The position numbers and the translations under genes were made by a program. Shown here piece after piece: positions 1,028 through 55,481 of a stretch of DNA of 64,000 nt (position 1 is its first letter; each line of letters begins with the position of its first letter). The stretch is taken from IMG/VR virus record IMGVR_UViG_3300031853_000015, positions 19,485 to 83,484 of that record; one strand, 5' to 3'. Below the pieces are notes generated by a model. That model made no database searches. It saw only the letters and a list, made by a program, of their open reading frames with translations, and was not told where the DNA came from. The stretch comes from a virus (lineage: Duplodnaviria > Caudoviricetes).

Positions 1028-1096
1028 CAACAATTATTTTAAATCCCCAAGAAAATAATGAAAAAATTAATTATATGATATAAAGTTAGTAACTGA

Positions 1097-1130
1097 TTTG
1101 TAGGTATAAAATATTTACTTTATCTTTGCA
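1097..1130 (+). promoter_or_regulatory. Bacteroidota -33/-7 promoter
   Basis: TTTG at 1097-1100, 20-nt spacer, TATCTTTGCA at 1121-1130. Confidence 0.8.
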
Positions 1131-1150
1131 GGAATGATAAAAATAATCAT

Positions 1151-1354
1151 ATGAAAATATTTAATTTAACTGAAAAAGAAGAAGAGGCTGCTGAAAAATT
1201 TATGGAGAAACACAGACATAAAGATGTTTTCAAAGGAGCTATAGGAGGGCATTTAAGTTATAGATTCACCCTTACTTCCATAGGTACATGTGTTTCTGTG
1301 AGCTGCAGTATATGTGAGAAAACTAAAAATATTACTGATTATAGTAAATGGTAA
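1151..1354 (+). CDS. Small Cys-containing protein, possibly Zn-binding; TAG-free
   Basis: 67 aa ending in FTLTSIGTCVSVSCSICEKTKNITDYSKW; has its own promoter and terminator. Confidence 0.75.
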   Translation: MKIFNLTEKEEEAAEKFMEKHRHKDVFKGAIGGHLSYRFTLTSIGTCVSVSCSICEKTKNITDYSKW

Positions 1355-1356
1355 AT

Positions 1357-1385
1357 AAAAAAGGTGGTAGAAATACCACCTTTTT
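1357..1385. terminator. Bidirectional intrinsic terminator
   Basis: AAAAAAGGTGGTA-gaaa-TACCACCTTTTT between convergent genes. Confidence 0.85.
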
Positions 1386-1423
1386 AAATATAATCTTTGA
1401 AAGTTTAACTAATTTAATTATGA

Positions 1424-1651
1424 TTACTTAAAGTTTCTAAATTCCATCATATTACTAAGCATATTTGCTAGTACATTTCTACCAAAATCATCTTCATTTT
1501 CCTGATTAGCTCTGGAGATGTAATGATTTATTACTGTAATAATCTGTTTAAGAAGTATATTATTTTCTTTAAGCAGTTTATTGTTCTAATGTGTTTTATC
1601 TTTGATGTATTCAATTGTATCAAAGATATAATCTTCTTCTCTTTTTGTCAT
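1424..1651 (-). CDS. Small hypothetical protein, 75 aa, 1 TAG
   Basis: MTKREEDYIFDTIEYIKDKTH*NNKLLKENN...FGRNVLANMLS, ending TAA. Absent from the ORF track because of the TAG. Confidence 0.7.
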
Positions 1652-1798
1652 AAAAATCAAAATTTAATATGCAAATAATAACTTTCAAATGACCAAATAT
1701 TTTAAGTTAAATATTGTTAATGCTTCAATATTTAAATCAATTTATTATCAAAGTAACACTTTTATTGTTAAACTCTTGATAATATAAAATAAAACAGT

Positions 1799-1808
1799 TA
1801 CCTTTGCA
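1799..1808 (+). promoter_or_regulatory. Bacteroidota -7 promoter for the virion RNAP operon
   Basis: TACCTTTGCA. The TTG used as start by the ORF track lies inside this element. Confidence 0.7.
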
Positions 1809-1842
1809 CAATCAAAATAATAATAGTAAAAAAACAAGAAAT

Positions 1843-4800
1843 ATGAATAGAGCATATTGTTATAGCCCTCAAGCTATTGATAAAAAACTGGCAAATTATA
1901 TGAGTACTCGTCCTTATGCTATAGCATGGACTCCTGGATTTATAGCTACTCTAAGAGGTGCTTATGATCTTGCCAATGGTTTCTCTGAAGAACAGGGTAA
2001 GGTTAATCCTATGTGGTCTTTAGATATAGATACTGAAGATTATGATGGAGACAGTGTACAAGCGGATAACCTTTATAATATAGCACAAACTTTAGCAGAC
2101 TTTAGATTTGAGAAAAAGAAGGAACAAGCAAATGCTATAAATAATTTTAATGAAAATAGAACTGAAATATGGACAACTATTTCAGATAATTATTCTGATT
2201 TAAATACATTTTATCAGAGAGCTTCTCAACTTTCCTTCTATTTTATTCAAGCTGTAGATAATTATATAGAACAACAAAGGTTGGAGGGTAAAATATTCAC
2301 TAGAAAGCAGATTATTGAAGGCATTCCTTTGGAAGATGAAGATGGTCATTATGTTATGTCTAATGGAAAGCCTATGATGGCAATAGATTCTGATAAAATA
2401 TTTAGTGCTGTATTCAATAGGTTTATGGAGGATTATTCTGAAAGAATGGATGATCCTAATACTAAAGAAGCAGCAAAGAAAGAATATTATCATAATGAGT
2501 ATCAGAAGATATTTAATCCTAAAGTATGGGCGGCTTTATTAATGGCCTCTAAAGCCCAGCTTAAACAAATGGAGGGATTAAAGGTTAGTCTTACTGATAA
2601 TAGTGCTTCTGAAGTAGATTTAAGTACTCTTAATGATAATGATTTATCAGACTTATTTATTGCAGAAGAATCTGTCAGGGAAGGTTGGCAAGTAATTACA
2701 GATTGTTTATCTGCTTATGGAAATCTTTCCAAAGAAGTTAGAAAGGCTTTGAGTTATATACCTTTATTAGATGAAAAAGGGCAAGCTTTAGAAGATGACT
2801 TAGGTTACGATATAAGAATGAGTTCTATAACTGCTTATCATGATTTAATGGATTTACTTAGGAATTGTCGAAGTAAATCCAAAATGATGAAACTTATTGA
2901 GAGAAGTCAAGGATTTAGAAGCCTTTATGATAAATTAGTTAATAATGAGGTTCTTCAGTCCCAATTATATAATAACTTTAGAAAAACATCCCAACTTTAT
3001 GTACAGATACAATGGGAATGGAATAAAATTAAGTTTTATGTTTTAAATAAAACTAAAGGAGAGCATTCTGTAGGAAATTATTTATTTAGTATAAAATATC
3101 GTCCTGCAGGAAGTAGTATAGCTGCTTCTAGTAGAACTCATTGGAGCCAAGCAGATCTTGATTCTTTAAGCAACCTTTTAAAACAGTTTGAAGATAAATA
3201 TGATTCTGATGGGAAGTTAACCTATAGTTTCTGGAAAGAAAGGGCAACTCAACAGGCAACCCTTCTACGTAAAGTTTTTAATGCTTTAGGTATAGCATAT
3301 ACTGATAAGGCCCTTTCTACTTTATTAGATAATAAAAAGAATCTTTCCGAGGTTGTTAAACAGCTTGCAGGTTTAAGCCAACATGGAGGATTAAAAAGTG
3401 AGAGAGCTGACACTGAAGGATACAATTTTTATGCTTGGCTTACTTATAAAACTAAAGAACAGGAAAAGGGTGATACTCAAGCTAAAATTGAAAAGATCAT
3501 CACTAAACTTGAAGAGAGTGGTAATGGAATTGTTTATGAAAATAAATGTAGAACTGTAAATGGTAAAGGACAATCTGTTACTTACTATGGTGATGTACAG
3601 CCAAATTTTATGGGAGACTTATTAGGCAAAATTCAATCTTTTGCTCAAGCATTTCCAGAAGAAAGGGAAGAAAGTAGAAAAGAATTTAAAGAGTGGTTAC
3701 GTAATAAATATTTTTCTAGTTCTCAATTTTGCACAGATTTTGATGCAGAGGGTAATCCTAAATCTTCCAGTAATGTTAAAAACTTTTTATTAAGAACTCT
3801 TTGGGAAGAAGCTAATGCTGATGTAACCAATGCTAGAATAGAAGCAACTAATAAGCAAAGAAAATTAGATAATGAGGCACCTCTTCCTTATGTTACTGAT
3901 ATGTTTGATGATAATAGCCTTACCTCTCAGTTTCGATTTATGAGAGTTGTAACAGGTAAGTATCAACAGACAGTCATTCCTTTTGAAAACTTTACTACTA
4001 AGCAACATTTTGAACAATTAGTAGGTTCTTATTTTGCATTAGACACTCAATCGAATCAGCAAATGCAGGAATTTGTTTATGTTCCTGTATTTGTATTAGG
4101 AGACAGTGGAGTATGTAAAGTTCTTAAAATAAAAAGAAAATCTACTTTTGATGATTATCAAGATGATAAATTTAATGGAGATTCAGTTGTTGAAGAACTA
4201 TATAACCTTTATGAGTCAGAACTTAGAAGAATGACTCTTTTCCAAAAATTTATTGAACAGAATAATAAAAAACATATTAAAAATAATCCTAATATACTCA
4301 AAACTTCCAAGAAATTTACAATGCTCACTTTCTTAAATGAAGAATTTAAAGGCAGAGACTTTAAAACTCTTGGAAAACAAGAAGTAAAACAGGCTATTAA
4401 TAAGTACTTAGAAAAAGGATTTGCCGCATTTTTAAAAGTAGGAGAAAATACAGGAGCTCTCAAAGTAGATAGTTCTGGAAAACTAGGAAAGAATCCTATG
4501 TATCAAGATATATGTAGGATAGCAGATCCTAGGAAAGAAGCCCATTCTAAAACTCCTGCACTTAGGGAAAGGCTTAAAGAGCTTTATTATAATGTATATC
4601 TTTCCAATCTTTTACAGTATCAGATTTTTACTGGAGACTTAGGATATTACGAAAGTGTAAAGGAGTTTCAGAAGAGATATAAGGAAGTTCATGCTCCAGG
4701 AGAAGTATTGGATGTAAATGCTACTTGGAAAGGTAAGGAAGTAGTTAAGGCAAATGCTCAAGGACTTAAAACTCAAAAGACAATATATTTTGAAGATATT

Positions 4801-7800
4801 GGAGTCAGTGTAGAAGAAAATAATAAGGAGCTTGCTGAAGTACTTCTTAAATTACATTCCTCTGATAGAGCTGCAGCTGAAAAAGCCATCGCTGAGGGTA
4901 TTTTAGAGCCTAAGAAAGGAATAGAAGAGGATGAAAGACAAAAGCGACTTAAAGAACTTTTAGGAAGTAATTATAATGTATATTTAAAGTTCATTACTAC
5001 TCCTAAATCTGAAGTAACACGTGGTTCAAGTGGTAGTTCTCAAACAGATGGTCAAGGTTTTAGGCATATAGATTCTTATAGAAAGATAGAAATAATGAGA
5101 GGTACTTGGAGTAGCAATCCTCTTAAGGAAGTATTGTATCAAGAGGTCTCAACTATTAATGAAGATTGTATAAAGAATCATCGCAATCCTACTCCTGAAG
5201 AACTTGATAGAATTCAAGCCTTCCATGTGACAATAATGCCTTTAAAGCCTTACCTATTTACTATGGAAAAAGTACATATAAATGATGGAAAGACTGATGA
5301 TAATCTGTTTGTTCCTGTACAACATAAATATGCAGAAGCTATATTAATTCCTTGCCTGCTTCCTGTTGGAAGTAAACTTAGAGAAGTAGCTGAGTATATG
5401 GGAGAGAATAATATTGATTTGATATGTTCTGATTCTGTAGTAAAGGTAGGTATGTGGGGACAAACTGATATTGAGGAAAAGAGTTCCACTGACATTTCTA
5501 GCTTTGTTAATGAGGCAAAGAAGAATATTAGTAAACTGCCTTCATCAGTTAAAACTGATAGCAGTCCTCTTAGAATAATGAGTATTGAAAAGGGTCTTGA
5601 TTTTAATATTTCTGTAGGAGAAACCTATAATGTCAAGTTAGATGATAAAAATGCTCAATATCATATTCTTGGGTATGAACAAGATGGAGATCAACATCTT
5701 TCTAAAATATGGTTTACATCTTCTGAAGCTCCCAATAAAGTATCTAGTTTAGTAGGAAGCACTCTTGCAGAATTTATTGATGCTGCAGGTAGTCATAATC
5801 CCATTAAAGCTAATACTAACAGTACTATAAATATTAAGGATAATCTATCAAAAGCTGTTATACATGAATTGAATTATGAAGATTATAGAATTCAATCTAA
5901 TGTTCCTGAACATATAAATGTAGAAAGGGCATTGGGTACTCAGATAAGGAAACTTATTATGGGTAATATTAATATGTTTTCTAAGGATGTTTATGGATAC
6001 TTAAAAGATAAAAATGGAGAAGATATATCTTTTAGACTTACTAAAGGAGGAAGTAAAATGAAACTTACTGGTAGAAATCTAGTTTCTTTATATACTTCTC
6101 TTATAGTAGCTAATATGATGCAATCTTTTGCTAAGTTTAAAAGAAATATTGAAAATGAAAAGAAATTAAGTACCCTTCTTACTTCTGCTATTGTTAATAA
6201 TGATAGGTACTCTTTACATCAATTGCTAGACATAGCAGTTAATGATGGCGAGTTTGCTACTCCTTTATATGAAGGTTCTATAGAGCATGATACTATAAGT
6301 ATGATAGCCAGTATCTTCAGAAAAGAAGTTAATAAGCAGGATATGAATGGAGGTAGTGCTGTACAAGTTTCTGATTGGGGAATTACTGCTAAAGAAGAAG
6401 TTACAGGTACTGAAAGACCTCTTAAATTTGTAACGGATGTAAATAATGAAAATGTATTATATGCAGAAATTGAAATTCCTTTTAACTTTACTTATATCAA
6501 TTCTGATGGTATAGAAGTGGCTTTGGACTTTAATACTTATTGTAACCCTGATGGAACTTTTAAATTAACAGGTAATACTATTGATATAAAAGGAGTCAAA
6601 GTAGCAGAAACTAAAATAGAGCATGATTTTCCTGGCATACTAGACATAATTGCATATAGAATTCCTTCAGAAAGATGTTACTCAATGCTTAATTGTAGAG
6701 TAGTCAGATGTTCCAATATGACAGCTGGAGGTACTATAAGAGTTCCAGCCCAAGGTACTACTATTGCAGGTTTTGACTTTGATATTGATAAGTTATACTT
6801 ATTAAGAAGAAGTTTTGTTAAACGAAGAGTAGCTGTAGAATCTGCATATTCAGGAGCCGAAAAGTATGATATTTTTGCTAAAATATATGCTATGGATGCT
6901 GAAAGACAAAGAGTTCTTGAAGCTAAAGATAAGTCTCAAAAAGCAAATATTATTAATGCTCAAGCAGAGAAGACTTTAAGAGAAATGAATCAAGATCCTG
7001 ATGATTATGCTTCAGTAGAATCTCTTTGGGAAGAACTTTTTATAAATCTAGAAAGTCCTTATACTACAGTATATGAAGAACTAAGTAATGAAGATAAAGA
7101 TTATTTAGAGAATAAGCTCATAATACCAGGAGAAAGATTAAAAAATGTAATTTTCTTAAGCAATCTCTTTAATGAGGAGAAAAGACGTAAAGTTTCAGAA
7201 ATCTCCGATGATAAAATTTACAAAGGATCTGAAGTTTTTCATATGTTATTTGATGAACTGAATAATGGTCAAATAAGTAAAAAAGGTTGGAAAATTTATA
7301 ATAAATTAGACTATTCTCAGGAATATTATGATGAGGAACAAGTAAGAGAAGATGAAGACTATATTCCTTCTTCTGCTATAATATCTAAGTTAAGAGCTAT
7401 AAGAGAAGCTTCAGGAGAATATCACTATGAAAAAACTGCCAAAGGAAAAGTAAAGAAGGTTTATGATAAGGCTTTAGCTGAATACTGGAATACTATGATT
7501 GAGCAGAATCCTTATATGGAAGGTGAAGATGCTTATGATAAAGGCAAACTCTTTGAACAAGCAGCAAAAGAACTTGGCTTATGGAAAGAGATTGAATATA
7601 AGGAAGAACTTGAAAATTATGATTTTGATAAAGGAGTAACACAGAATAGTAGGTCCTCTAGAAATAATCTTATCTTTGAGTTAATGAGACAGAGACTTAT
7701 GGACCCTGAGACTCTTAGAGATAGGTTAACTCCGGGTGGATTTGATAATTCTAGAAATGCTGCTGCATATTTGAAAAAGCTTCTACATATTAATGAAGAA

Positions 7801-10800
7801 CAAGATGCTGCAGATCCAAGTACTCTATTATTCTATAATCAGCTTAATCAAGTAGCTGCTAAATTAATTGGTGTATTTGCTAATCAAAGCACTAATCACC
7901 AATTATCATCTATAATAAGAAGTTTAGATTTGAGAGAACCTATTCTTTTCGATGGTATGATTGATGCTAAACTTATTAAAAGCACAGAAGCCTTGGAAGG
8001 ACTAGAAGATACTGAGAAAGAAGAAAAAATAGGGCGTAGTTTATTATCTAAAATTATACAGTTGAAGGATGGTACTATAGTAGATATAGATTTAAACCTT
8101 GCAGAATTCCTTGCTGCTTCTGTAGATGCTGTAAAGGATCCTGTATTGAATTATCTTAACTTTAATACCACTACTGCCTCAGTAGGAGCCTTACTTGCTA
8201 GAATGGGCTATGCTACCAAGGATATAGGACTTTTATTTAATCAGCCTATAATTAAAGAGGTATGTGATATTATTCAAAATAGTGGTAATACATTATCCTT
8301 TAATAGTGTAAAGAGTGATATTATTAAAAAATATGGTACTTATGATGAATATAAAAAGATTGCAACTGATGTAACATCTGAAACATTAGAAGACACTATA
8401 ACCAGATATATAGATGTTTCTGAAAAAGCTCCTAATGCTCAAGAGGCCTTTCAATCTCTAAAGCAAGAGAAAGATTATATGCAGACACAATTAGCTGCAT
8501 TGAAAATATTTGATCAGGCCTTCAAAGCTTCCAGAGAATTAAACAATTTTATAAATACCACTAAATTCACTGCGGCAAATGCTGTAGGCAGTACTTTAGG
8601 CTTCTTTTATAATCAGCAATATAAAGTAGAAGATTATGTTAATCAATCAGACAACATGTTAAAGATGGTTATTTATGAATCTCTTAAGAATGCTCAGGAA
8701 ATACAAGAGGGTTCTAAAGAAGTACAAGATAAGTCTCTTAACACTAAAATACCAAGCAGTCTGGTTAATGATAGAGAAGCTTATATAAAATCTCAAATAG
8801 AAAATCCTTTTGCTTTTGAGCAGTGTATGTATGATTTAAATAAGGAATTTCTTAAAATATTAAGTAAGTACTATCCTTATGATAAAGCTATTTATAAAAA
8901 TAGAAGAGAGGTATTAAGAGATTTTTTAGCTTATACTAGAGTATTGGATGCAGAAACTATAGATTATGCCCATAGAGAAACTATGCAGCATATATTAAGT
9001 TCCACTGATAGTGCCTTTAATCCTACAGCTATTTATGTCAATGAAGCAGGTGAAGAAATATTGATAGATACTGATAAAAAGGATCTTGATGGTAATCCTA
9101 TTAAGCGTCCCTTAACTAATAGAGAATATTATTTATATCAATTTCCTATTGAATTGTTTAATATGGAGGGAGTTCCCAGAATTGATGCTTTAAAAGAGAA
9201 ATATCTCAAATTTACCTATTCAACACATACAGACACAACTACTGGAAAAGTTAATGCACAATTAAATATATCTGTAGATTTAGCTGTAGAACAAACAGAT
9301 AAAAATACTTTTACTAATCTTTGGGCACAGTTAGCTTCTCAGCATTCAGACCCTCTTCATATAAACCAGATAAAAGTAGACTTTATAAAAAAGTATATAA
9401 AACTTCATTATCTTATTCCAATGGATATTACATTGAAGAATTTAGAGCGTGCTAAAGGAGAACGTTATGAAGCTTTAAATAAAAAATATGAAGACTATGA
9501 AGAAAAATTGAAAGATTTCTTAAAAGATATACTGTCCTCAGAACAGTTAGAAGAAACACTTACATTTGCTAATGCAGAAACCTTTATAAACGTTTATAAT
9601 GTAGATAGAATTAATCTTCCTGCTGAGGAACAAGAAGCATTAAATAAAGAAATCCAAAAGAAAATAAATATGGATAATATATGTAATAAAGTAGCTTTAG
9701 GACTATATTTTCATAATTATTATAGAACTGGTTTTGGTACAGGTCCTTTTAGCTTCACACAATTTACTCCTATTGAAGTGAAAAATCTTATTGAAATAGG
9801 AGAGGGGGCAGACAGAATGCCTTATCTAGATTATATAAGGCCTGATAATTTGGAAACCTTAGCTACTGCAGCAATTAAAGGCAGGTATCCTAGAAGTGCT
9901 GTTGAATTTGCTTATATGTATGCTTTAAATCATACAGATGATTACAAACTTGTCACACCTATGCCTTCTACAGGTAATCAAACATATGCCTCCTATTTTG
10001 TAGATGCTTATGGCTATGCTACTTCAAAGTTTTCTATTGATATACACACTGCTGAAAAAGATATTAAGGAGGCTGATAAGAAGTTTGTTATGGCTGTAGA
10101 TAAAGAAACAGGAGATTTTAAGGTACATCCTGTTATTAGAAGGGGTGGACAAATTTATGTAGCCACTATAGATGGAGAATATAATTTTACTGGTAATATA
10201 TTTGATTCCTCCAGGCACATAGTTACTTATATGAATGTACCTATCTTAGGAAAGAAAAATGTTTCTACTACATATGCCTCTACTTTAGATGAAGCTTTAG
10301 CAATAAAGAAGGGAGATGCAGAAGTGCTTACAGCAATTGAACAATCTATAAGTGATACAATTAAAGAAGATATTATAAGAAGACAACTGGAAGAAAAAGG
10401 AGAAGAAGTTGATGTTGATGATCTTCTACATCAAAGTGAAGAGGTACCCTCGGAAACTGTTGAGGAAAATCCAATAGGGGCTAACTTTGCAGAAGATGAT
10501 TCTTATACTGAAGAAGATGTAGATGCTCTTATGGAGAGAATATCTGAATGTAATCAAGTAAATGAAGATTTCTTATTGGAATATGTTTTAAAAACTTATG
10601 ATGAAACAGCTCCTGAAGATCAAGAGGTTGTAAGAGAAAAAGCTGTACCTGCTATTAAAGAAAAATTAAATAAAGCAGTAGAAGAAGGTCTTCCTGCATC
10701 TATGCAAAATACTAAGGTAGCAGAAGCTTATAAAAAGCAACTTCTAATTGAACAATTAGCAAACAGATTAAAAGCCGATGTAAAAGCAGGAAGAATTGAA

Positions 10801-10836
10801 GTTTATACAAAATTAACAAAAGAAAAAATATGCTAA
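1843..10836 (+). CDS. Single-chain virion-type two-barrel DNA-dependent RNA polymerase, about 2997 aa
   Basis: Catalytic GFDFDIDK (DxDxD) motif, AYRIPSE and QTDGQGF motifs typical of crAss/phi14:2-type RNAP. Likely start ATG 1843, stop TAA, no in-frame TAG. Confidence 0.9.
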   Translation: MNRAYCYSPQAIDKKLANYMSTRPYAIAWTPGFIATLRGAYDLANGFSEEQGKVNPMWSLDIDTEDYDGDSVQADNLYNIAQTLADFRFEKKKEQANAINNFNENRTEIWTTISDNYSDLNTFYQRASQLSFYFIQAVDNYIEQQRLEGKIFTRKQIIEGIPLEDEDGHYVMSNGKPMMAIDSDKIFSAVFNRFMEDYSERMDDPNTKEAAKKEYYHNEYQKIFNPKVWAALLMASKAQLKQMEGLKVSLTDNSASEVDLSTLNDNDLSDLFIAEESVREGWQVITDCLSAYGNLSKEVRKALSYIPLLDEKGQALEDDLGYDIRMSSITAYHDLMDLLRNCRSKSKMMKLIERSQGFRSLYDKLVNNEVLQSQLYNNFRKTSQLYVQIQWEWNKIKFYVLNKTKGEHSVGNYLFSIKYRPAGSSIAASSRTHWSQADLDSLSNLLKQFEDKYDSDGKLTYSFWKERATQQATLLRKVFNALGIAYTDKALSTLLDNKKNLSEVVKQLAGLSQHGGLKSERADTEGYNFYAWLTYKTKEQEKGDTQAKIEKIITKLEESGNGIVYENKCRTVNGKGQSVTYYGDVQPNFMGDLLGKIQSFAQAFPEEREESRKEFKEWLRNKYFSSSQFCTDFDAEGNPKSSSNVKNFLLRTLWEEANADVTNARIEATNKQRKLDNEAPLPYVTDMFDDNSLTSQFRFMRVVTGKYQQTVIPFENFTTKQHFEQLVGSYFALDTQSNQQMQEFVYVPVFVLGDSGVCKVLKIKRKSTFDDYQDDKFNGDSVVEELYNLYESELRRMTLFQKFIEQNNKKHIKNNPNILKTSKKFTMLTFLNEEFKGRDFKTLGKQEVKQAINKYLEKGFAAFLKVGENTGALKVDSSGKLGKNPMYQDICRIADPRKEAHSKTPALRERLKELYYNVYLSNLLQYQIFTGDLGYYESVKEFQKRYKEVHAPGEVLDVNATWKGKEVVKANAQGLKTQKTIYFEDIGVSVEENNKELAEVLLKLHSSDRAAAEKAIAEGILEPKKGIEEDERQKRLKELLGSNYNVYLKFITTPKSEVTRGSSGSSQTDGQGFRHIDSYRKIEIMRGTWSSNPLKEVLYQEVSTINEDCIKNHRNPTPEELDRIQAFHVTIMPLKPYLFTMEKVHINDGKTDDNLFVPVQHKYAEAILIPCLLPVGSKLREVAEYMGENNIDLICSDSVVKVGMWGQTDIEEKSSTDISSFVNEAKKNISKLPSSVKTDSSPLRIMSIEKGLDFNISVGETYNVKLDDKNAQYHILGYEQDGDQHLSKIWFTSSEAPNKVSSLVGSTLAEFIDAAGSHNPIKANTNSTINIKDNLSKAVIHELNYEDYRIQSNVPEHINVERALGTQIRKLIMGNINMFSKDVYGYLKDKNGEDISFRLTKGGSKMKLTGRNLVSLYTSLIVANMMQSFAKFKRNIENEKKLSTLLTSAIVNNDRYSLHQLLDIAVNDGEFATPLYEGSIEHDTISMIASIFRKEVNKQDMNGGSAVQVSDWGITAKEEVTGTERPLKFVTDVNNENVLYAEIEIPFNFTYINSDGIEVALDFNTYCNPDGTFKLTGNTIDIKGVKVAETKIEHDFPGILDIIAYRIPSERCYSMLNCRVVRCSNMTAGGTIRVPAQGTTIAGFDFDIDKLYLLRRSFVKRRVAVESAYSGAEKYDIFAKIYAMDAERQRVLEAKDKSQKANIINAQAEKTLREMNQDPDDYASVESLWEELFINLESPYTTVYEELSNEDKDYLENKLIIPGERLKNVIFLSNLFNEEKRRKVSEISDDKIYKGSEVFHMLFDELNNGQISKKGWKIYNKLDYSQEYYDEEQVREDEDYIPSSAIISKLRAIREASGEYHYEKTAKGKVKKVYDKALAEYWNTMIEQNPYMEGEDAYDKGKLFEQAAKELGLWKEIEYKEELENYDFDKGVTQNSRSSRNNLIFELMRQRLMDPETLRDRLTPGGFDNSRNAAAYLKKLLHINEEQDAADPSTLLFYNQLNQVAAKLIGVFANQSTNHQLSSIIRSLDLREPILFDGMIDAKLIKSTEALEGLEDTEKEEKIGRSLLSKIIQLKDGTIVDIDLNLAEFLAASVDAVKDPVLNYLNFNTTTASVGALLARMGYATKDIGLLFNQPIIKEVCDIIQNSGNTLSFNSVKSDIIKKYGTYDEYKKIATDVTSETLEDTITRYIDVSEKAPNAQEAFQSLKQEKDYMQTQLAALKIFDQAFKASRELNNFINTTKFTAANAVGSTLGFFYNQQYKVEDYVNQSDNMLKMVIYESLKNAQEIQEGSKEVQDKSLNTKIPSSLVNDREAYIKSQIENPFAFEQCMYDLNKEFLKILSKYYPYDKAIYKNRREVLRDFLAYTRVLDAETIDYAHRETMQHILSSTDSAFNPTAIYVNEAGEEILIDTDKKDLDGNPIKRPLTNREYYLYQFPIELFNMEGVPRIDALKEKYLKFTYSTHTDTTTGKVNAQLNISVDLAVEQTDKNTFTNLWAQLASQHSDPLHINQIKVDFIKKYIKLHYLIPMDITLKNLERAKGERYEALNKKYEDYEEKLKDFLKDILSSEQLEETLTFANAETFINVYNVDRINLPAEEQEALNKEIQKKINMDNICNKVALGLYFHNYYRTGFGTGPFSFTQFTPIEVKNLIEIGEGADRMPYLDYIRPDNLETLATAAIKGRYPRSAVEFAYMYALNHTDDYKLVTPMPSTGNQTYASYFVDAYGYATSKFSIDIHTAEKDIKEADKKFVMAVDKETGDFKVHPVIRRGGQIYVATIDGEYNFTGNIFDSSRHIVTYMNVPILGKKNVSTTYASTLDEALAIKKGDAEVLTAIEQSISDTIKEDIIRRQLEEKGEEVDVDDLLHQSEEVPSETVEENPIGANFAEDDSYTEEDVDALMERISECNQVNEDFLLEYVLKTYDETAPEDQEVVREKAVPAIKEKLNKAVEEGLPASMQNTKVAEAYKKQLLIEQLANRLKADVKAGRIEVYTKLTKEKIC

Positions 10837-41316: not shown

Positions 41317-42825
41317 TTATCCCTCTAAAGCTGCGGGTATCAGTGACATTGTTCTTGTAGGATCAAGAATACATACACCAAGTGTAGTCTTTCTATGCAT
41401 CACAGCAGCATCTTCATCAAATGAAGCACTCATATTATTAGTCTCTCCAGTGAAAGGATTAGCAAAAGGACCCCATTGGAAGCCTCTAAATTCAGGATGA
41501 CCTTTAAGGGCACACTTGAAGATATTAGGCTGATCCATAGTACCAATGTACATAATATCAAACCTGGAGCTCATAAGAGGATGTCCTTTATCATCTGTCA
41601 GTTTATTCCTAACTGGATCATCATAGAAGTTATCTACTTCAAGTTTTACTGTAACTCCATTAGGAGCACTCCACTCTGTGAACTGATAACCTGCAGCCAA
41701 TGCATTGCTATTGAGAGGAGAATTAGTTTTTCTAACAACTCCAAGCTGGTCTGCATTAACTTGGAATTCAGTCCAACCACTCATTGCATTTCTAACTGCA
41801 TTATGAAAGAGAATTGCACCCTGTTCACCTGTTCTAACCACAAAGGTTCTTTGACCAAAATCAAGTTTAGCTGCACTCAATTCATAGAGAGCATCTTCAA
41901 GCATCTTCAAAGAGAAGTCATTATAGTAATATGTATTACCATACTTCATCTGTGCAAGAAGACCATCACCCATTCTAATAACTTCACCAGATTTGCCAAT
42001 GTTACCATACTCACCATTGGGGTTTCTATTGGAAGTACCGAACATAAGAGCAGAATTCTTTTCATCAGACCACTCCTGTTCAAACTGCCATTCTACCCAA
42101 GGCATCCACATGGTTTCTACTTTCTTATTGCCCTTCTTATCAACTAATGGAACACCACAAGCAAGTTTCTTATTCAACATAGTTGAACCAGGAACCTTGA
42201 ACTGCTTTCTAAGTGTAGTCCATTCATTTCTCATGGCAACAGGAGCAGAGAATCTTACATCACCAACTTTTCTTGAATTTTCTCTTTCTACAGGAGCAAA
42301 CTCATGGGAGAATCTTTCACCTTGCAGAAGTCTTTCAGAAGGAATACCATCTGTAATACCTCCCATAAGCTCCACTTTATACACAGCATTTGTGCCTTCC
42401 ATTCTTGGATCACCCAGTACTCTCATTGGGTAAACCTCATTGAGGTTTCCAAAAAGTACCTCACCATCAGCGAACCAATCCTCACCAAATACAAGATAGA
42501 AAGGAGCAGTACCTACACCTACATTAGGATCACCTGCCTGAACTACTTTTCCACTTTCATCTCTAGCTTCCAGAAGAGGAATATTTCTTCTAGAAGAACC
42601 AACTACCTGCCATGTGAACTCATCATCTGTATCAAACTCTTTAGTTGGATATTTGGCTAATTCACTTTCAAGAGACTTACCTCTATAAAGTGCAAGAAGT
42701 TGAACCATAAAATCAGATACTGGTTGAGGAGCCTTCTAATAAATAGAGGCTAAATGATTATCTTTAGTCAGACCTTTCCAACCAGTAAACTGAACCATTT
42801 GAAATCTACCTAGCTTACCTGCCAT
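41317..42825 (-). CDS. Major capsid protein, 502 aa, single TAG at codon 30
   Basis: MAGKLGRFQM...WKGLTKDNHLASIY*KAPQ versus crAss001 MCP MAGKLGKFQM...WKGLTSDNHLGAIFQQAPQ (recalled); C-terminus LDPTRTMSLIPAALEG. Confidence 0.95.
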
Positions 42826-44501: not shown

Positions 44502-44884
44502 ATTTTAAATTTATTTAATAGTGTTCCTATAAGTAATAACAATCCTACTCCTCCTAACCACATTAAAGCTTTCTACCAAGTATATAATTTATTTGTTGTA
44601 ACAGTTTTCACTACCTCTACTATTACTGGAATACTGTCTGTTTTAAGTACAGTATCTTTAACAAATACTTCCCTTGTTTTATATTTAAATTTATTTACAT
44701 AGACTGTATCTCCCTTCATTTCTATGAATACATTTATAGAATCCTATAAATGTACATACTCTTTCTAAACTTCATATTCAGTTCTTACAGTTTCTATAGG
44801 TACTTTAACATATTCAGTTGTCTTACATCCAGCAAATAAAGTTATAGATAATATTAGACTTATTAATAGTATTTTAAATTTCAT
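44492..44884 (-). CDS. Putative unimolecular spanin, 130 aa
   Basis: Lipoprotein signal MKFKILLISLILSITLFAG-C, beta-rich middle, C-terminal TM W*KALMWLGGVGLLLLIG; 3 TAG; stop TGA. Confidence 0.6.
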
Positions 44885-47340
44885 TTTTGTGTTTTTGCCC
44901 TAGCCCTTAACTAGTCTTTACTGATTTTCTCTTTTAATTGTAATGTCTCTCTATGCTTCTACTTCTCAAAGTCCAATTTCTCCCTATCTAATGCTAATTG
45001 CTTATCAAATTTTAGCATATCCTGCATTAATTTATCCTTAGCTTCTTGACTATATTCATCGGGTTTTATACCATCATTTTCTTCATCTGCCTCTGTCATA
45101 CGATTCTTTAGTTGAAGAATAGCCATTTCAGCTTGAGAATTAATTTCTGCAACAACTACTTTAGTTTCATTATCTCTTTGGTTTATAGAATCTTTAAAGT
45201 CTCTTTCTGCTTGTTTATCTTGCATCTGAGCTTCCAAAGCCTATTGTTGTTGTTGCATTTGTAACTGCTATTGTTGCTGCTATTGTTGTTGGATATTCAT
45301 TTCATCCCTTTCAACAAATCTTTGTTTTTCTGCTATTGAAGCACTCATATAGAGTTTCATTATAGTAGAGAAACTTAAAGTTTGTGTCTATAGAGCAGCC
45401 TAAGCAAGAGTCTCTAATTTTTGCTGTAATTCTTGCAGACCTCTACTATTATCTACTACAAGACCATAATCACATTCAGCAAAAGTATCTCCTTCTATTT
45501 CTATTACTTGCTTTGAATTATCAGGAAGAATATAATTAAATTTTTTAGTTCTTCCTTTCATAGCAATTTTAGCAGTTTCAAGGAAACATTCAAGAACTCT
45601 TCTCTTTACATCATCATGAATTGAAAATAACCATTCTGTAATATGGGAAGATTGAAGAGTAGCTCTTTCTACACCTCCTACAGTTTCTCTATTGGAAATT
45701 TGTCCTTCTCTTTGTTTACTAATACCTGCAATATCAGACATTTCCATCTTAATAAATTCAAGAAGATTGATATACTATTGAATATTATTACCAAAGTCTG
45801 CGTCAATAACTCCTTGAGTATTACTATTCATGCCTCCTGCAAGTTTGCCTGTAGCAGCTCCTATAGTCCCTTCATTAAAACTATCTTCTACAAATAGTCC
45901 TAAAGTTTTGGCATAATATAACCATTTCTCCATCTTCCATGCTTTAGGTTTCTTTGATAGGTCTAATCTAGTCATTTTGCCCCAGTTCCTAGCCATCATT
46001 TTATTAAGCCTGTCATGAATTATATCATAAAGATAATTAAGAGGCTTCATCATATCTACCATAGAAAATGGCTTATCATCATTAATATTGTAGATAGAAC
46101 CTATGATACCAAAATGACATTCAGAAGGATTATCTAATCTATTATATTGAATTATACGGGGTCTTATATTTACATAAATATCCTAACCTATCTTAGTACC
46201 CTCCCAGGCTTCATTAATCCAGAAAACCTTTTCTTCTTCTCCTTTCATTTCATTAGGTATATAAGATTCAGGCATAAAAGTAAAATCCTCTTCTCCTGTT
46301 TGGGGATCATAGAATTTAATCTTTTTAATCTTTCTCCTGGATTTCCAATATACTCTTATTACTCTGATATTACCATTCATATCAAAAGGAAGAAGTTCAT
46401 TATTAACAGTATCAGCATACTATCCAAAAGGATCAAAAAACATAGTACTATCAGCTATAGTATCAGATATCATATGGGAATTTACAAACCCATATCTTTC
46501 ATCTATATTATCCATAGAATCTACTGCTCCCTAACTGAAATGGTCAGGGAACTACTCAAGGTATTTAAGATCTTTTGGTTTTAATACATCTTGAAAAACA
46601 TCATAGACTTTGCCTGGACTCCAATAATCTTCTAATATAATCATATCAGCATCTTCAATCCTATTACTATATCCTGATTTGAAAATTCTGACTTTCATAG
46701 GATTAAGCCTTTCTACTATAGGTTCTCCTCCAACAATATCACATTGATAGATTTCTTCCCCTACAGCCATAGCATCAGTAAATCCTCTATTGAATATTAA
46801 AGGCATATTATACTATCTGGTATAATGATTAAGGACACAATTACCCATTACCTCCTTAAAATCCTACCATTCAAAAGTATAATAATCATTTAGCTTTTCA
46901 AGTTCCTGATTAAACTACTCCTCACTGAGAGCATTATCCTAAATAATCTATTGCAGACTTTGAAATAAAGCCTGCTTCTTATTGTTTTCTATTTCTGAAA
47001 TTGCATTAGGATTAGTGACCATAACCCTATAATCAAAAACTCTTCCAAGTTCTTCTCCTTTAAGAACATTCATTTTAGAGTTCATGATAGCATAATGCTA
47101 TATTTTATCAGGAATAAAGTTAGCCTTTATTCCTTCAGGATTATTTATAAGCTCAAGGTCATCCATATGAATTTTTCCTGCCATAAGATCATAGTTAATC
47201 TTCTGATGAAGAATACTCTATCTTATGAAGGAATAATTAAAATGCAATTTAGAATCCGCAAAGTCCACACACTATCTTCTCCAGGCTTCATTCTTTCTGG
47301 AATTAGATAACTGTTGTGGAGGAAACTGCACATTATTCAT
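44881..47340 (-). CDS. Portal protein, 819 aa; TAG=Gln
   Basis: GEEIYQCDIVGGEP...KSGYSNRIEDADMIILEDYWSPG crAss portal motifs; all fragments in one frame; poly-Gln tract containing TAG; stop TGA. Confidence 0.93.
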
Positions 47341-47358
47341 AATTAATCTTTTTAGTGG

Positions 47359-47368
47359 TGCAAAGATA
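47359..47368 (-). promoter_or_regulatory. Bacteroidota -7 promoter for the portal gene
   Basis: TATCTTTGCA 18 nt upstream of ATG 47340. Confidence 0.75.
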
Positions 47369-47439
47369 CAAATAAAAGATAATATAAACAATAGTTTAAA
47401 TAAATTATTTATTTATATTATCTTTTTTACTAAATTTAC

Positions 47440-49722
47440 TTAGTACATAAAACTATTTTGCTCTTCTTCTGTAAATCTTTTATCATAATTCTCTAAGAAA
47501 AACTCATCATTTCCAGCATAATCAGCATCTTCACTCATTCTATGGCCTTTTACATCTCCTTGATAGAGAATTATTTTTTCTTCTCTAAATAACATTAATT
47601 GCCCTAAAGCCCTTACTCTATCCACATTGATAAAAGGATTATAAGCTACAAGTTCTTTTAACAGGGCTCTATTCCTTATTAAGTATAGATTAGGTATAGT
47701 AGTCTCTTTATCTTCTCCATCTTCTTGTACTACAGTAGGTACTGGTTTAATTAGCCATTCTTTTATTAAAGCATCTGCATAATTATTTATTGCAGCAGTA
47801 GCTCTAACACCTTTACTATTATTACCAAAGCTTGTATACTTTAATATCTGCTTATCTCTTAAATATTCAGGAGTATCCGCTAATAAATGAGAACAATTCA
47901 TTTTACTAAAATATGAATAAGTTCCTTTAATATTAGCTTCATACATACACTTAGCATTATAGTATAAACACAATAATCTTACTTTTTCATATAATTCTTC
48001 TGCATAAGTGGTTCTTCCTGTATATTCTGCTACTAATCTATCTGTAAATAAATCCAATACCAATGCTGATCCTAAAGACATAGAATTAGCCTAATCATTA
48101 TCATATGGGTCAAATCCTATTATATATCTGTCAGACTATACTTTTCCATCTTTATTTTTTTCAGGCTATTCAAATATCTCAACACATCCTTTTGCAGTAT
48201 TATCTTTAAGAGGGAATATTCTTATAGGTAAATCATTAGTAAGCTTAAACTTAACTTCTCCTGATTTATCAAGTACTAAATCTCCACACCAAACATCATC
48301 ATACTCATTAGGATTATTATCTATCTAAGTAATTCTTTCATTAAGTTGTGTGATAGGAAATACATTGCCTTTAGTTCTAAGGACTGCTTCTTGAGGAGTA
48401 ATAGGAATTTCTGCTATAGTTTTCGTTATAGAGTTTACATCAGTACTATTGTATTTAACTCTGTATCTATCACTTAGTATTTCAAGTAAAGCTTTAGTTA
48501 CATTACTATTACCATCTTTATCATAACAACCTTTTCTATTTAAGTATCCAGGAAAAAAGAAAGTAATAGTCTGTCTTCCCTAGCCATCTTTATCATAAAC
48601 ATTAGGAATACCATACATTCTATAACCTTTAGGGTTATACACTATTTCTTGAGCTCCTGAAAAATCACTTTCTTCATCACCGGCAGTACCTATCAAGTAC
48701 ATACTCCCGAAAGAAATATCTCCTTCTTGTACTGAAGGAATCATAATATTATATAATTCCAATACATTTTTGAAGCTACCAAATTCTTCTACTACAATAA
48801 AATTCTGTCTTTTACCTCTGACTTTGGAGCTGTCATCTTTAGCAGATACTCCTAATACTTCATTTAAAGTACCTTTATCTGTCCCAGTATCTAAATCTCT
48901 ATAGCCCATCTTCCAGGCCATATCCTGCAAAGAACTTTTAAGCCTTTTACTTGGAAACTGTGTAGTCTATGCTAAGAAATCTATACCTGCTTGGAATTTA
49001 TTTAGAATACCATCTGAAGTAAGATATTGTTTCTAATAAGCAGTTACCATACATTTAACTGCTCTATTTACATCTTTAGATTCTCCTAACACAAACCTTT
49101 TACCCATCATAGAAGACATACAGTATGACTTGGATTTGCCTCTACTGCTTATTTCACAGCCATTATTTCCTCCTTTAGGGTCATATATTCCTCCATTAAT
49201 AGCCTAATCTATATAATTATATCTATAGAATATACCATCCCAAACTTCTGGAAAATCAATAATTCTTTCTCCTTTTTTTGAACCTTTTTTATACCTAGTT
49301 TGCATAATAGGCCAATAATTCAGAAAGAAATACATATCCCCAGTTATCCAAGCTCCATCAGATTTTCTTACATATCCTTCATAGCATCTTCTTACTTCTT
49401 CTCTAATCCATTTACCAAAATCACTATTAGGATTACTATTAGGTCTTAATTTAGTAAATACTCCTGTCTTTTGATAATGCAAAGCAGTAGGTCTAAAATA
49501 ATCCATATCTGTAAGTATAGGAGGGTCAGTAATATCTATAATAACCTTACCTTGTTCATCTCTTGGCAAATCTTTAAAATAAGGTCTATTAGGAGATATT
49601 AATCTCTATACAAAAGGTACATTACATATAATGTCCCAAAACTATTCCTGTACCTCTTGAGGATAATTTTCTAATTGTAATTCTTCTACAGAAGATTGAT
49701 ATTTATTAAAGGTGTACTCCAT
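47440..49722 (-). CDS. terL: Terminase large subunit, 760 aa; TAG=Gln
   Basis: Walker A-like SSRGKSKSY, Walker B IVVEEFG, nuclease-domain NVDRVRALGQLML; single frame. Confidence 0.92.
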
Positions 49723-52353: not shown

Positions 52354-52369
52354 ATAAAGTTAATTAAGT

Positions 52370-52438
52370 TGCGGGCCTAGGACTTGAACCCAGAGCTTAA
52401 GGCTATGATCCTCATATGTTACCTTTACACCAACCCAC
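52370..52438 (-). tRNA. tRNA with anticodon CAT (elongator Met or Ile2)
   Basis: Cloverleaf GTGGGTT...TGAGG-ATCATAG-CCTTA...TTCAAGT...GGCCCGC; G1-C72, so not initiator type. Confidence 0.75.
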
Positions 52439-52465
52439 ATATAACTTCTACTCTTTTTTAACCCA

Positions 52466-52678
52466 TTACTTCTTTTTTCCAGATATCTTACCTCCAGCAG
52501 CAAGCTGCATTGCTTGAACCCTCTTAGATAGTTCAGCAGCTCTAGTCTTAGCAACTTTAACAGCAGCTGCTTTTCTATTCTTATCTGAAATTATCTCCTA
52601 ATAGCGTGCCAATGTTTCAGCATCACTTTCAGCTTGCCATTTCTTTTCATTTGCAGTCATATCTTGTAATCCTTTCAT
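52466..52678 (-). CDS. Small basic helical protein, 70 aa, 1 TAG
   Basis: MKGLQDMTANEKKWQAESDAETLARY*EIISDK. Confidence 0.65.
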
Positions 52679-52683
52679 TTTAA

Positions 52684-53142
52684 TTAATTGATAGTTAATT
52701 GTATTGGAATAGTACTACTTTGAAGTATTTTGTATAACTTTATAAAAGTCTCTTTAGAATTAAGAACTTTACCCACTGCCTTGTTTTCTCCTACTATAAT
52801 ACAACCTGCACTATCTTCAGCTGTATTACCTGCATGTATTAATACTCCTTCAAATCCAGGTACATTCAATAGCCTTGGAAGTCTACCTCCATTAGCATTC
52901 TTCATATAGAAGTCTTTTGTACCAAATCTAGGACTTATAGTATTTAATACTATTGTGTAAGTACCTGTAGGTATAGCAGTTTCATTCTAAACTTTCATAC
53001 TTTTTATTACAGATAGAGGCATAGTCTATTTTAATCCTCTATCTTTATCTTCTATAGTATTACAAAAGAAGGCATCATCTATAAACAATTTACCTATAGT
53101 ATAAGTGTCCTTCTTAGCAATTCGCTTTAATAGCAATTTCAT
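52684..53142 (-). CDS. DUF5675-family protein (L,D-transpeptidase-like), putative endolysin, 152 aa
   Basis: MKLLLKRIAKKDTYTIGKLFID...ETAIPTGTY...GVLIHAGNTAEDSAGCIIVG. Confidence 0.8.
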
Positions 53143-53153
53143 ATTTTAAAAGT

Positions 53154-53315
53154 TTATTTCTTTTTGTGCTTAAAGTGTTTTGCGTTCTATGCAAATATAG
53201 CCCTTTTCCTTGTTATAGGATTCTTACTATGAGTAAGTTCTTCAGTACTCTTACCTGTTCTTTTCTTAGTAGCAGTAAATTTGCCTCTGTTTTCTTTCTT
53301 AATATGTATTGCCAT
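53154..53315 (-). CDS. Small basic protein, 53 aa
   Basis: MAIHIKKENRGKFTATKKRTGKSTEELTHSKNPITRKRAIFA*NAKHFKH. Confidence 0.7.
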
Positions 53316-53392
53316 AATATTATAGTGCTATTAAATATGTATTGTTTTAATCTACATCTCCATATGGAGGTGACTTATACATTAAATTTAAG

Positions 53393-53464
53393 TAGTCCCT
53401 AGCAGAATTGAACTGCTCTTTAGAGATTGAAAATCTCTTGTCCTAACCAATAGACGAAAGGACC
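53393..53464 (-). tRNA. tRNA-Glu(TTC)
   Basis: AGAGA-TTTTCAA-TCTCT anticodon arm; T arm AGCAG-TTCAATT-CTGCT. Confidence 0.9.
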
Positions 53465-53467
53465 ATG

Positions 53468-53540
53468 AGCAGATGATGGGATTCAAACCCACAACTTTCA
53501 GAATGGAAATCTGACGCTCTGTCAATTGAGTTACATCTGC
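53468..53540 (-). tRNA. tRNA-Gly(TCC)
   Basis: GCAGATG/CATCTGC acceptor; TCAGA-TTTCCAT-TCTGA anticodon arm. Confidence 0.85.
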
Positions 53541-53703
53541 ATATGCTGTAGTTTATCCATCATCCTACAGCTAATGTGGATAGTACGACATCCAACAGGA
53601 CTAATCTTATGTTGTATTTCTAAACTATCAAAACTTAAAATATCAGAAACAACAGCCTGTAAGTTACGTTGAGTTTTACACTAGTACTATACTCTTTATT
53701 GTG

Positions 53704-53776
53704 AGCCTCCTATAGGACTTGAACCCATAACACACTGATTACAATTCAGTAGTTCTACCAATTGAACTAAAGAGGC
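53704..53776 (-). tRNA. tRNA-Thr(TGT)
   Basis: GCCTCTT/AGGAGGC acceptor; ACTGA-ATTGTAA-TCAGT anticodon arm. Confidence 0.9.
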
Positions 53777-53992
53777 AAAAGAAGGAGGATAAAAACAAAC
53801 TATTCTCAGAAAAAAAGATCCTCCCTCCCATCATTAATAACCACCATCGTAGTTATCATTATTACTATTATAAACACCAATCATATATCCTATAACAAAT
53901 GTTATTAGGAGATATATAAAAACAATCAAGTCTCTCATTAAAATGTTACAGATATTTTATTAACAGCATCCATAAAATTTAATGAATCCTAC

Positions 53993-54385
53993 TCATTCTG
54001 AAGTTGCTTTACTTGCAGTTCTTCTACTACGCTTTTTAACTCCATTAGAACAGTCTTCATCCTTTCCTTTAGTCTCTGTTCCATTGTCTTCTCCATTAGA
54101 CTTATTAACTGTTTTAGTTGTTTTCCTCTTAGGTTTTTCTGTTTCTAATTCCTCTTTCTTAACTTCCTGTACTATTTCCTCTGGTTCTACAGGAACTAAC
54201 ATTAATATTATAAGAGAAATTACTGCCAGTAAAATTGGAAGAATAACTATTATCCAAGGTAATGTGCTATAACTTACCATTTTAAGTAGTATACAAACTA
54301 CTCCTGCTATGAATAATACTGCCACTCCTTTATTAACAACTTCAGTGGAATTAACTAAACTTTCTAATTTTTCTACTAACTTCAT
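53993..54385 (-). CDS. Two-TM membrane protein with a charged tail, inside the tRNA cluster; TAG-free
   Basis: Two hydrophobic segments followed by a Lys/Glu-rich C-terminus; stop TGA. Confidence 0.7.
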   Translation of the reverse strand: MKLVEKLESLVNSTEVVNKGVAVLFIAGVVCILLKMVSYSTLPWIIVILPILLAVISLIILMLVPVEPEEIVQEVKKEELETEKPKRKTTKTVNKSNGEDNGTETKGKDEDCSNGVKKRSRRTASKATSE

Positions 54386-54410
54386 ATTTTATTTTATGTT
54401 AAAATAAATG

Positions 54411-54482
54411 TACCCCCACTAGGATTCGAACCCAGACAAGAAGGCCTAGAATCTTCCGTGCTAGCCATTACACCATAGGGGA
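54411..54482 (-). tRNA. Amber suppressor tRNA (anticodon CTA), Gln-type body
   Basis: TCCCCTA TG GTGT AATGGCTA GCAC G GAAGA-TTCTAGG-CCTTC ... CTGGG-TTCGAAT-CCTAG TGGGGGT A. Weak 1-72 pair and G37, as in the neighbouring tRNA-Gln. Confidence 0.9.
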
Positions 54483-54511
54483 TTATATACCCAGTATTTC
54501 AAAGAACTTTT

Positions 54512-54585
54512 TGGTTGCTCCTGAGAGATTCGAACTCCCCAATTCAGAACCAAAATCTGATGTATTGCCACTATACTAAGGAGCA
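54512..54585 (-). tRNA. tRNA-Gln(TTG) with encoded CCA
   Basis: TCAGA-TTTTGGT-TCTGA anticodon arm; ends AGGAGCAACCA. Confidence 0.92.
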
Positions 54586-54589
54586 ATAG

Positions 54590-54661
54590 CTGCCTAGAAG
54601 AATTATGATATCTTGACCTGCTGATTAACAGTCAGCTGCTCTTCCTCTGAGCTACTAGGCA
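54590..54661 (-). tRNA. tRNA-Asn(GTT) with a degenerate T loop
   Basis: GCTGA-CTGTTAA-TCAGC anticodon arm; T arm reads AAGATATCATAATTCTT, without TTC. Confidence 0.65.
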
Positions 54662-54668
54662 ATTTTTG

Positions 54669-54740
54669 TAGGGGATGGGAGAATCGAACTCCCTTCACTT
54701 GCTCCCAAAGCAAGAATCTTATCCATTAGACCAATCCCCT
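54669..54740 (-). tRNA. tRNA-Pro(TGG)
   Basis: CTTGC-TTTGGGA-GCAAG anticodon arm; GGGAG-TTCGATT-CTCCC T arm. Confidence 0.9.
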
Positions 54741-54962: not shown

Positions 54963-55481
54963 TTATTTAACGAAATTTTTTATTTTTCTAATAAAATCCT
55001 TTAATTTTGCAGGGTCTAACACCTCTTTATTAGTGATTCTCTCTATTCTTATATTAGGATTACATCTCATTATATCCTCAGTTCTCCATTCATCAAGATA
55101 CTATTGGTCAAGAGTTTGATGATATTCACCATCTACTTCTATAACAAGATTAAGTGTTGGAAGGAAGAAATCTACTATATAGAATCTTTCAACCTTTCTA
55201 TCCTCTCCTACTATATATAAAGGATACTGGAAGATAAAGTTTATATGTTCCTTATAAAGAAGTTCATATAATCTCTACTCTGCTTTAGTAGGATTCATTG
55301 CTAATTTTCTTGCATATTCTTGAGCAGCAACTACTACATTCTTTCCTACAGGTTTTTCAGTACCTTTAATTCTTGCTCTTACTTTCTTCCTGGAAGAAGT
55401 GGCACAAGTTTCAGATTTACTCTTCTTCTTGAAACCACTTCTTTTCCAAGTATAAGTTTTCTTTGTTTTAGACTGTATCAT
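54963..55481 (-). CDS. DUF559/Vsr-like endonuclease, 172 aa, 2 TAG
   Basis: PTKAE*RLYELL...FQYP...FYIVDFFLPTLNLVIEVDGEYH...DEWRT. Confidence 0.8.

Follow-up and report, generated by a model that had tools for sequence, protein, structure and literature searches.

A putative glutamine-inserting amber suppressor tRNA in tandem with tRNA-Gln(UUG) in a bovine-gut crAss-like phage

A tRNA gene with a CUA anticodon lies directly behind a tRNA-Gln(UUG) gene in the tRNA array of a gut phage. This arrangement raises the question of whether the CUA tRNA is a functional amber suppressor, which amino acid it would insert at UAG and which synthetase would charge it. The window considered here, i.e. the whole stretch of 64,000 nucleotides that was analysed, corresponds to positions 19485-83484 of a linear IMG/VR virus record of 83,484 bases. 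The completeness of this record is ~81% (CheckV estimate), and the missing ~19% of the genome could hold another suppressor, a release factor or an aminoacyl-tRNA synthetase. The record belongs to a crAss-like phage from the bovine gut with a G+C content of 31%, whose major capsid protein, portal and large terminase (TerL) are all of crAss type (PHROG profiles). The closest deposited DNA is that of the IAS virus and of a Kolpuevirus, both Steigviridae, with ~74% identity in the portal gene. The CUA tRNA is very probably a functional amber suppressor that reads TAG as glutamine ('code 15') and is charged by the host glutaminyl-tRNA synthetase (GlnRS).

The tRNA array and the CUA tRNA

Seven tRNA genes were identified by ARAGORN within 52368-54740, each on the minus strand, and Rfam adds an eighth (Table 1). 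The initial annotation had described an amber suppressor with the loop TT-CTA-GG in tandem with tRNA-Gln(TTG), 29 nt apart, and ARAGORN, Rfam and reading of the sequence all agree with this description. The ARAGORN run that it had proposed as a check returned a CTA-anticodon tRNA at 54410-54482 on the minus strand. This is the only CTA tRNA in the whole 83.5-kb record. The tRNA-Asn(GUU) has an atypical T-arm without the usual GTTCRA motif, with a four-pair stem and a nine-base loop in the fold. Small ORFs are interspersed among the tRNA genes of 52368..53776. Between the suppressor and tRNA-Thr lies a 130-aa ORF of holin-like layout, with two hydrophobic segments plus a charged tail; its only match is a weak one, to a PHROG of unknown function. 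A scan for sigma-70 promoters and terminators around the array remained at chance level (15 found for 15.3 expected), with models that do not cover Bacteroidota or phage promoters.

Table 1. Features of the window, in window coordinates
Feature	Coordinates	Strand	Basis and remarks
3010-codon ORF	1804..10836	+	0 TAG, 128 CAA/CAG; would be translatable without suppressor
1558-codon ORF	10838-15514	+	31 TAGs; starts one base after the 3010-codon ORF
Major capsid gene	41317..42825	-	PHROG 11589; single in-frame TAG (codon census)
Portal gene	44881..47391	-	PHROG 6547, E 1e-124; 20 in-frame TAG; putative suppressor client
Large terminase gene	47440..49722	-	PHROG 6681, E 1e-99; 760 aa; 10 in-frame TAG; putative suppressor client
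tRNA-Met(CAU)	52368-52439	-	ARAGORN/Rfam
tRNA-Glu(UUC)	53392-53464	-	ARAGORN/Rfam
tRNA-Gly(UCC)	53467-53540	-	ARAGORN/Rfam
tRNA-Thr(UGU)	53703-53776	-	ARAGORN/Rfam
130-aa ORF	53993-54385	-	No TAG; PHROG match E 2e-4
Putative amber suppressor tRNA(CUA), glutamine-type body	54411..54482	-	ARAGORN 54410-54482; Rfam RF00005 45.0 bits
Spacer, tRNA-Gln(UUG) to suppressor	54483..54511	-	29 nt, from gene coordinates
tRNA-Gln(UUG)	54512..54585	-	ARAGORN; Rfam RF00005 59.8 bits; U1:A72, A73, loop UU-UUG-GU, encoded CCA
tRNA-Asn(GUU)	54590..54661	-	Rfam 51.7 bits; missed by ARAGORN; 4 nt upstream of tRNA-Gln
tRNA-Pro(UGG)	54668..54740	-	ARAGORN + Rfam; first gene of the array
HNH/homing-endonuclease-like ORF	54963-55481	-	PHROG 559, E 6e-8; two in-frame TAGs; immediately upstream of the tRNA array

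The suppressor carries U1·U72, C2:G71, C3:G70, G10, A31·C39, the loop UU-CUA-GG (with G37 and G38) and A73. The gathering score of RF00005 is 29 bits. Exactly two pairs are flagged as non-standard in the Infernal alignment, 1:72 (U·U) and 31:39 (A·C), which are the two mismatches that had been noticed at the outset. The D-loop with its GG, the TTCGAAT T-loop and the five-position anticodon stem are all canonical. In tRNA-Gln(UUG) the CCA is encoded (54512-54514). The suppressor gene does not encode one (A73 then CAT at 54408-54410) and its product therefore needs a CCA-adding enzyme; this addition would presumably be performed by the host.

Assembly does not account for the suppressor, whose sequence is real. 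In a bovine-gut RNA library obtained independently, a 927-nt contig spans 53705-54631 with zero differences, and a DNA strain variant from another sample shows five differences over 1320 nt, none of them inside the suppressor. Where pieces of run X5 overlap the suppressor, they belong to a diverged relative. The tRNAs are covered by RNA-library contigs, although presence in such libraries is no proof of transcription.

The meaning of TAG

Reading TAG as a sense codon changes the gene content of the window from 12 ORFs of at least 150 aa (table 11) to 29, which tile the sequence. Over 64 chosen ORFs of the whole record, 330 in-frame TAGs were counted, and these ORFs stop at TAA (53) or TGA (11) but never at TAG. 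The Gln-type codons of the whole record are CAA (569), CAG (233) and TAG (330). At record positions 37-5526, 12 of 13 plus-strand genes are TAG-free, the ORF 2839-3141 having two. The TAG-free 3010-codon ORF stands directly before the TAG-rich 1558-codon ORF, and a code boundary thus falls inside an apparent gene pair. No family was found for the giant ORFs in PHROG searches. The major capsid gene has one TAG for 18 CAA/CAG codons, and the portal and tail-region genes have ~2 TAGs per 100 codons.

The amino acid for which TAG stands was approached through alignments of the portal with 120 full-length standard-code homologues and of TerL with 97. At seven portal TAG columns (98, 176, 287, 539, 664, 668 and 717) the homologue residues are all or nearly all Q, and 60% of the homologue cells over all portal TAG columns are Q. 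The same holds for TerL columns 27, 173 and 230, where Q is invariant in the 97 homologues. When the TAG columns conserved at 90% or more in the two proteins are considered, ten are Q, one is E and one is M; a conserved portal column under a TAG has E in 119 of 120 homologues. The mean profile of the 30 TAG columns (Q 0.58, E 0.10, K 0.07) resembles that of the phage's own CAA/CAG columns (Q 0.65, K 0.08, E 0.07) and differs from those of the Glu columns (E 0.74, Q 0.04) and of the Lys columns (K 0.67, Q 0.03). This indicates that TAG stands for glutamine. The BLOSUM62 fit at TAG columns is also best for Q, with 3.0 versus 1.5 for E. From these alignments, UAG is almost certainly read as glutamine in this phage. 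Glutamate and lysine as the meaning of TAG were rejected for this phage, since the column profile fits its own Gln codons.

Body, relatives and charging of the suppressor

The body of the suppressor was compared with cellular tRNAs by searching bacterial genomes for its D-arm and T-arm, the anticodon region being left free. This pattern occurs in at least 120 places, mostly in Bacteroidales. Among the matches listed, 119 are bacterial tRNAs with the anticodons TTG (93), CTG (17), GTG (6) and TCG (3): 110 have a Gln anticodon, six a His and three an Arg anticodon, and none a Glu or Lys anticodon. The preponderance of Gln anticodons identifies the body as that of a tRNA-Gln, in the form that the likely host clade uses. 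The Gln derivation proposed at the outset is borne out both by this signature and by the TAG columns, which behave like Gln-codon columns. Identity to tRNA-Gln of Bacteroidales and to other cellular tRNA-Gln is 74-79%. Additionally, blastn of the tRNA region matches true tRNA-Gln(TTG) of Gordonia phages.

Within the cellular tRNA-Gln among the matches listed (n=85), U1:A72 is found in 76, G2:C71 in 79, A73 in 67, G37 in 78 and U32 in 68. G37, which the initial annotation had singled out, is therefore nothing unusual; like A73, it is a host tRNA-Gln feature of the suppressor rather than an anomaly. U32 is likewise normal for a Bacteroidales-type tRNA-Gln. The pairs C2:G71 and C3:G70 and the base G38 differ from the cellular majority.

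Suppressors of the same family are present in other crAss-like phages. By blastn against deposited phages, the suppressor matches genes annotated as 'tRNA-Gln' in the RefSeq genomes cr130_1, cr53_1, cr60_1, cr7_1 and cr124_1; the three that were inspected (cr130_1, cr53_1 and cr7_1) have the anticodon CTA. A search of IMG/VR with a pattern made of the D-arm and U33-CUA retrieved at least 112 contigs, and 43 distinct suppressors of 71-75 nt were found among the matches listed. The nearest of them, in L089, shares 90% identity with it and departs from it in the anticodon arm only. Identity is 78-90% with suppressors of other crAss families and 54% with the adjacent tRNA-Gln(UUG), which argues against a recent local duplicate. 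Local duplication of tRNA-Gln(UUG) as the origin was rejected, within-genome Gln/Sup pairs being no closer than between-genome pairs.

The gene order is found again in two relatives, L008 (TerL 81% identical) and L010 (TerL 68% identical). In both, Gln(TTG) is followed by Sup(CTA) upstream of the terminase, with a spacer of 32 nt and Thr directly after in L008, and with a spacer of 4 nt and Thr after an Arg gene in L010. Their TerL and portal genes contain 21 and 49 in-frame TAGs, 17 and 30 of which, respectively, are opposite a Q of the window phage. L008 and L010 are two of the six nearest relatives by TerL; the other four, whose compared loci contain no suppressor, have no in-frame TAG in TerL and portal, and the standard-code IAS virus has no CTA tRNA among its 22 tRNAs, Gln(TTG) included. 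Suppressor presence and recoding go together among these relatives.

Many close TerL homologues (L008:8952-12230; P0122, P0124, P0145 and others) are ~1100 aa long and contain Hom_end/LAGLIDADG-type Pfam domains, a sign of intein-like insertions. The TerL of the window is without these insertions. An identical TerL is listed on a 132-kb contig.

The phage suppressors differ from cellular tRNA-Gln at three places, counted over mutually related sequences that do not represent independent events. Among the 43 listed phage suppressors, 22 lack a Watson-Crick pair at 1:72 (U·U in 11, U·G in 8, A·C in 3), versus none of the 85 cellular tRNA-Gln; 31:39 is G:C or C:G in 26 versus 8, and A37 is found in 40 versus 7. 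These counts may be taken as a sign that phage Gln-type amber suppressors are systematically retuned relative to cellular tRNA-Gln, a generalization that we consider rather unlikely. The open 1:72 position could compensate the lost contact with G36 by easing the opening of the acceptor end that GlnRS requires. The loop UU-CUA-GG was found once among the 43 listed suppressors, 40 of which have CU-CUA-AA or CU-CUA-AC. The pair 31:39 is formed in 39 and mismatched in four: outside the window, A31·C39 occurs only in L107 and a C·U mismatch in L008 and L057. The tRNA of the window, and in part that of L008, would follow another design, in which G37 and an unpaired 31:39 make what is effectively a nine-base loop. 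The suppressor of the window keeps the host-like U32. With this design, suppression could be deliberately weak and dose-dependent and so gate the late genes. The suppressor L107:5151-5222 has a different acceptor stem, A31·C39 and the loop UU-CUA-GC, one base off the loop UU-CUG-GC of Bacteroidales tRNA-Gln(CUG). This resemblance of the loops suggests a repeated origin of suppressors from host-type tRNA-Gln.

The initial annotation had seen no synthetase or release factor in the window. This stands, and profile searches of the whole 83.5-kb record (~81% complete) were equally negative for release factors (PF00472, PF03462), for a class Ic synthetase core, GlnRS or GluRS (PF00749, TIGR00440) and for PylS (TIGR02367). 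Five of five genomes of Bacteroidaceae/Prevotellaceae, the candidate host clade, encode a GlnRS (TIGR00440, 638-683 bits versus a cut-off of 425.8). We infer that the host GlnRS charges the suppressor, with which both the absence of a synthetase from the record and the presence of GlnRS in the candidate host clade are consistent. Recognition by GlnRS involves U35 and the acceptor end, and amber suppressors tend toward glutaminylation (PMC9976931, PMC1483225). The E. coli GlnRS identity set comprises U1-A72, G2-C71, G3-C70, G10, Y34, U35, G36, A37, U38 and G73 (PMC9976931). Compared to this set, the suppressor keeps U1 (with 72 unpaired), G10, C34 and U35, and departs from it at C2:G71, C3:G70, A36, G37, G38 and A73. 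Because G37 and A73 prevail in Bacteroidota-type tRNA-Gln, the E. coli set is not transferable unchanged. In the E. coli complex, GlnRS opens the 1:72 pair on binding. The unpaired U1·U72 of the suppressor fits this opening.

The alternative that survives best is that of a functional tRNA at which another residue is wholly or partly inserted at UAG, either lysine via LysRS or glutamate via GluRS. LysRS also recognizes U35, as GlnRS does, and is prone to mischarging amber suppressors. Amber suppressors of E. coli fall into Gln- and Lys-accepting classes, a strong 31:39 pair favouring Gln acceptance and a weak, flexible one shifting it toward Lys (PMC1483225). With its A31·C39 mismatch the anticodon stem is weaker here and, by analogy with E. 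coli, some mischarging is conceivable; the portal TAG column occupied by E would also suit this alternative. Nevertheless, the alignments give no sign of lysine as the intended meaning of TAG, the column profile is that of the Gln columns and not of the Glu or Lys columns, Q outnumbers E and M among the best conserved columns, and Glu and Lys anticodons are absent from the listed bacterial tRNAs with the same body. Insertion of another residue is therefore judged very unlikely.

Proposed decoding and known systems

In the proposed mechanism, the array would be co-transcribed and expressed early relative to the late genes, an assumption that agrees with the model put forward in the Borges et al. 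2021 preprint. The CUA anticodon would pair with UAG and the tRNA would compete against the host release factor 1. The suppressor would carry glutamine as a consequence of its tRNA-Gln body being accepted by the host GlnRS. It would enable the translation of ~50 genes with their 330 TAGs, among them those for portal, terminase, capsid and giant virion proteins. Being TAG-free, the early block and the 3010-codon gene could be made under the standard code of the host. The tRNA-Gln(UUG) would serve CAA, the commonest Gln codon of this AT-rich phage. Both tRNAs, which jointly cover 899 of 1132 Gln-type codons, would form a glutamine-decoding pair in an array of co-oriented tRNA genes located upstream of the packaging genes.

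It can also be proposed that the CTA tRNA is a weak or degenerating copy, TAG being decoded by another suppressor located in the missing part of the genome or encoded by the host. The incompleteness of the record leaves room for this, and recoded phages without detectable suppressor are known from published surveys (Yutin 2021 PMC7886860; Borges 2021 preprint). The tRNA itself has two non-standard pairs in addition to a weak four-pair AU-rich anticodon stem, and its Rfam score is the second lowest among the eight array tRNAs. Its computed minimum-energy fold (-23.3 kcal/mol) is not a cloverleaf, the cloverleaf (-17.8 to -19.0 kcal/mol) lying 4-5 kcal/mol above; this gap carries little weight, since the closest family member has a similar one. 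On the other hand, no second CTA tRNA is present in the 83.5 kb, the suppressor is unchanged in the strain variant that differs elsewhere, and relatives hold one suppressor at the same position after tRNA-Gln only if they are recoded. Moreover, the recurrence of U·U at 1:72 (11 of the 43 listed suppressors) and of 31:39 mismatches (four of 43, the nearest relative with an array included) argues for tolerated or selected features over decay. Decoding of TAG by another tRNA is accordingly held to be highly improbable.

A pyrrolysine tRNA, which has the CUA anticodon alone in its favour, has a negligible probability: the ARAGORN label 'tRNA-Pyl' is the program's name for any CUA anticodon, tRNA-Pyl has a short D-loop without GG, an elongated anticodon stem, a 3-nt variable loop and a PylS, and it was rejected here on the canonical D- and T-loops and anticodon stem, the lack of PylS in the record and the Q at TAG columns.

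The preferred reading, a suppressor charged with glutamine by the host GlnRS, has several known counterparts. The E. coli suppressor supE44 (glnV44) has a tRNA-Gln body with a CUA anticodon (G36 to A), is charged by GlnRS and inserts Gln at UAG. It is a chromosomal point mutant that acts by partial suppression in a standard-code cell, whereas the suppressor of the window is a dedicated phage gene facing hundreds of sense TAGs. The latter also breaks the E. coli identity rules at 2:71, 3:70, 37, 38 and 73, contrary to supE44. The glutaminylation of amber suppressors and GlnRS identity elements were reviewed by Giege 2023 (PMC9976931).

The TGA-recoded Jade phages possess a 'code change module' made of a suppressor tRNA, TrpRS and RF1 (Borges et al. 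2021 preprint). As in these phages, the suppressor of the window is phage-encoded and located near recoded late genes; unlike them, the present record contains no synthetase and no release factor.

TAG-recoded crAss-like phages with tRNA-Sup(CTA) were described by Yutin et al. 2021 (PMC7886860). The suppressors of cr130_1, cr53_1 and cr7_1 (Suoliviridae) have, like that of the window, CUA on a Gln-type body, A73 and a U1 that pairs weakly or not at all with position 72, and are 78-79% identical to it. The phages share late-gene in-frame TAGs and the lack of a phage synthetase or release factor. The window phage differs from them in that its nearest deposited relatives are Steigviridae, and its suppressor differs in the loop UU-CUA-GG with A31·C39, versus CU-CUA-AA or CU-CUA-AC with a paired 31:39. 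The tandem position behind tRNA-Gln(UUG) is otherwise found only in its two close relatives.

For two crAss-like phages, TAG=Gln was demonstrated by mass spectrometry (Peters et al. 2022, PMC9523058). A broad survey proposed charging by the host GlnRS (Borges et al. 2021 preprint). The window phage resembles the code-15 phages of these two studies in that its structural genes use TAG=Gln, its early genes keep the standard code, it encodes a suppressor and a charging role of host GlnRS is proposed. In contrast to the human-gut phages with peptide evidence, it is a bovine-gut phage in which TAG=Gln is deduced by comparison. Overall, the system is already published for this phage group and the current understanding of phage recoding is unchanged. 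A well-supported bovine-gut code-15 crAss-like phage, near Steigviridae, joins the published set, and gene calling on its genome must use TAG=Gln. What is new is one more member with small peculiarities, i.e. the tandem with tRNA-Gln, the host-like loop (U32, G37) and the open 31:39 pair, and with it a concrete tRNA variant (open 1:72, open 31:39, G37) for probing how the host GlnRS accepts a stop-codon-reading tRNA.
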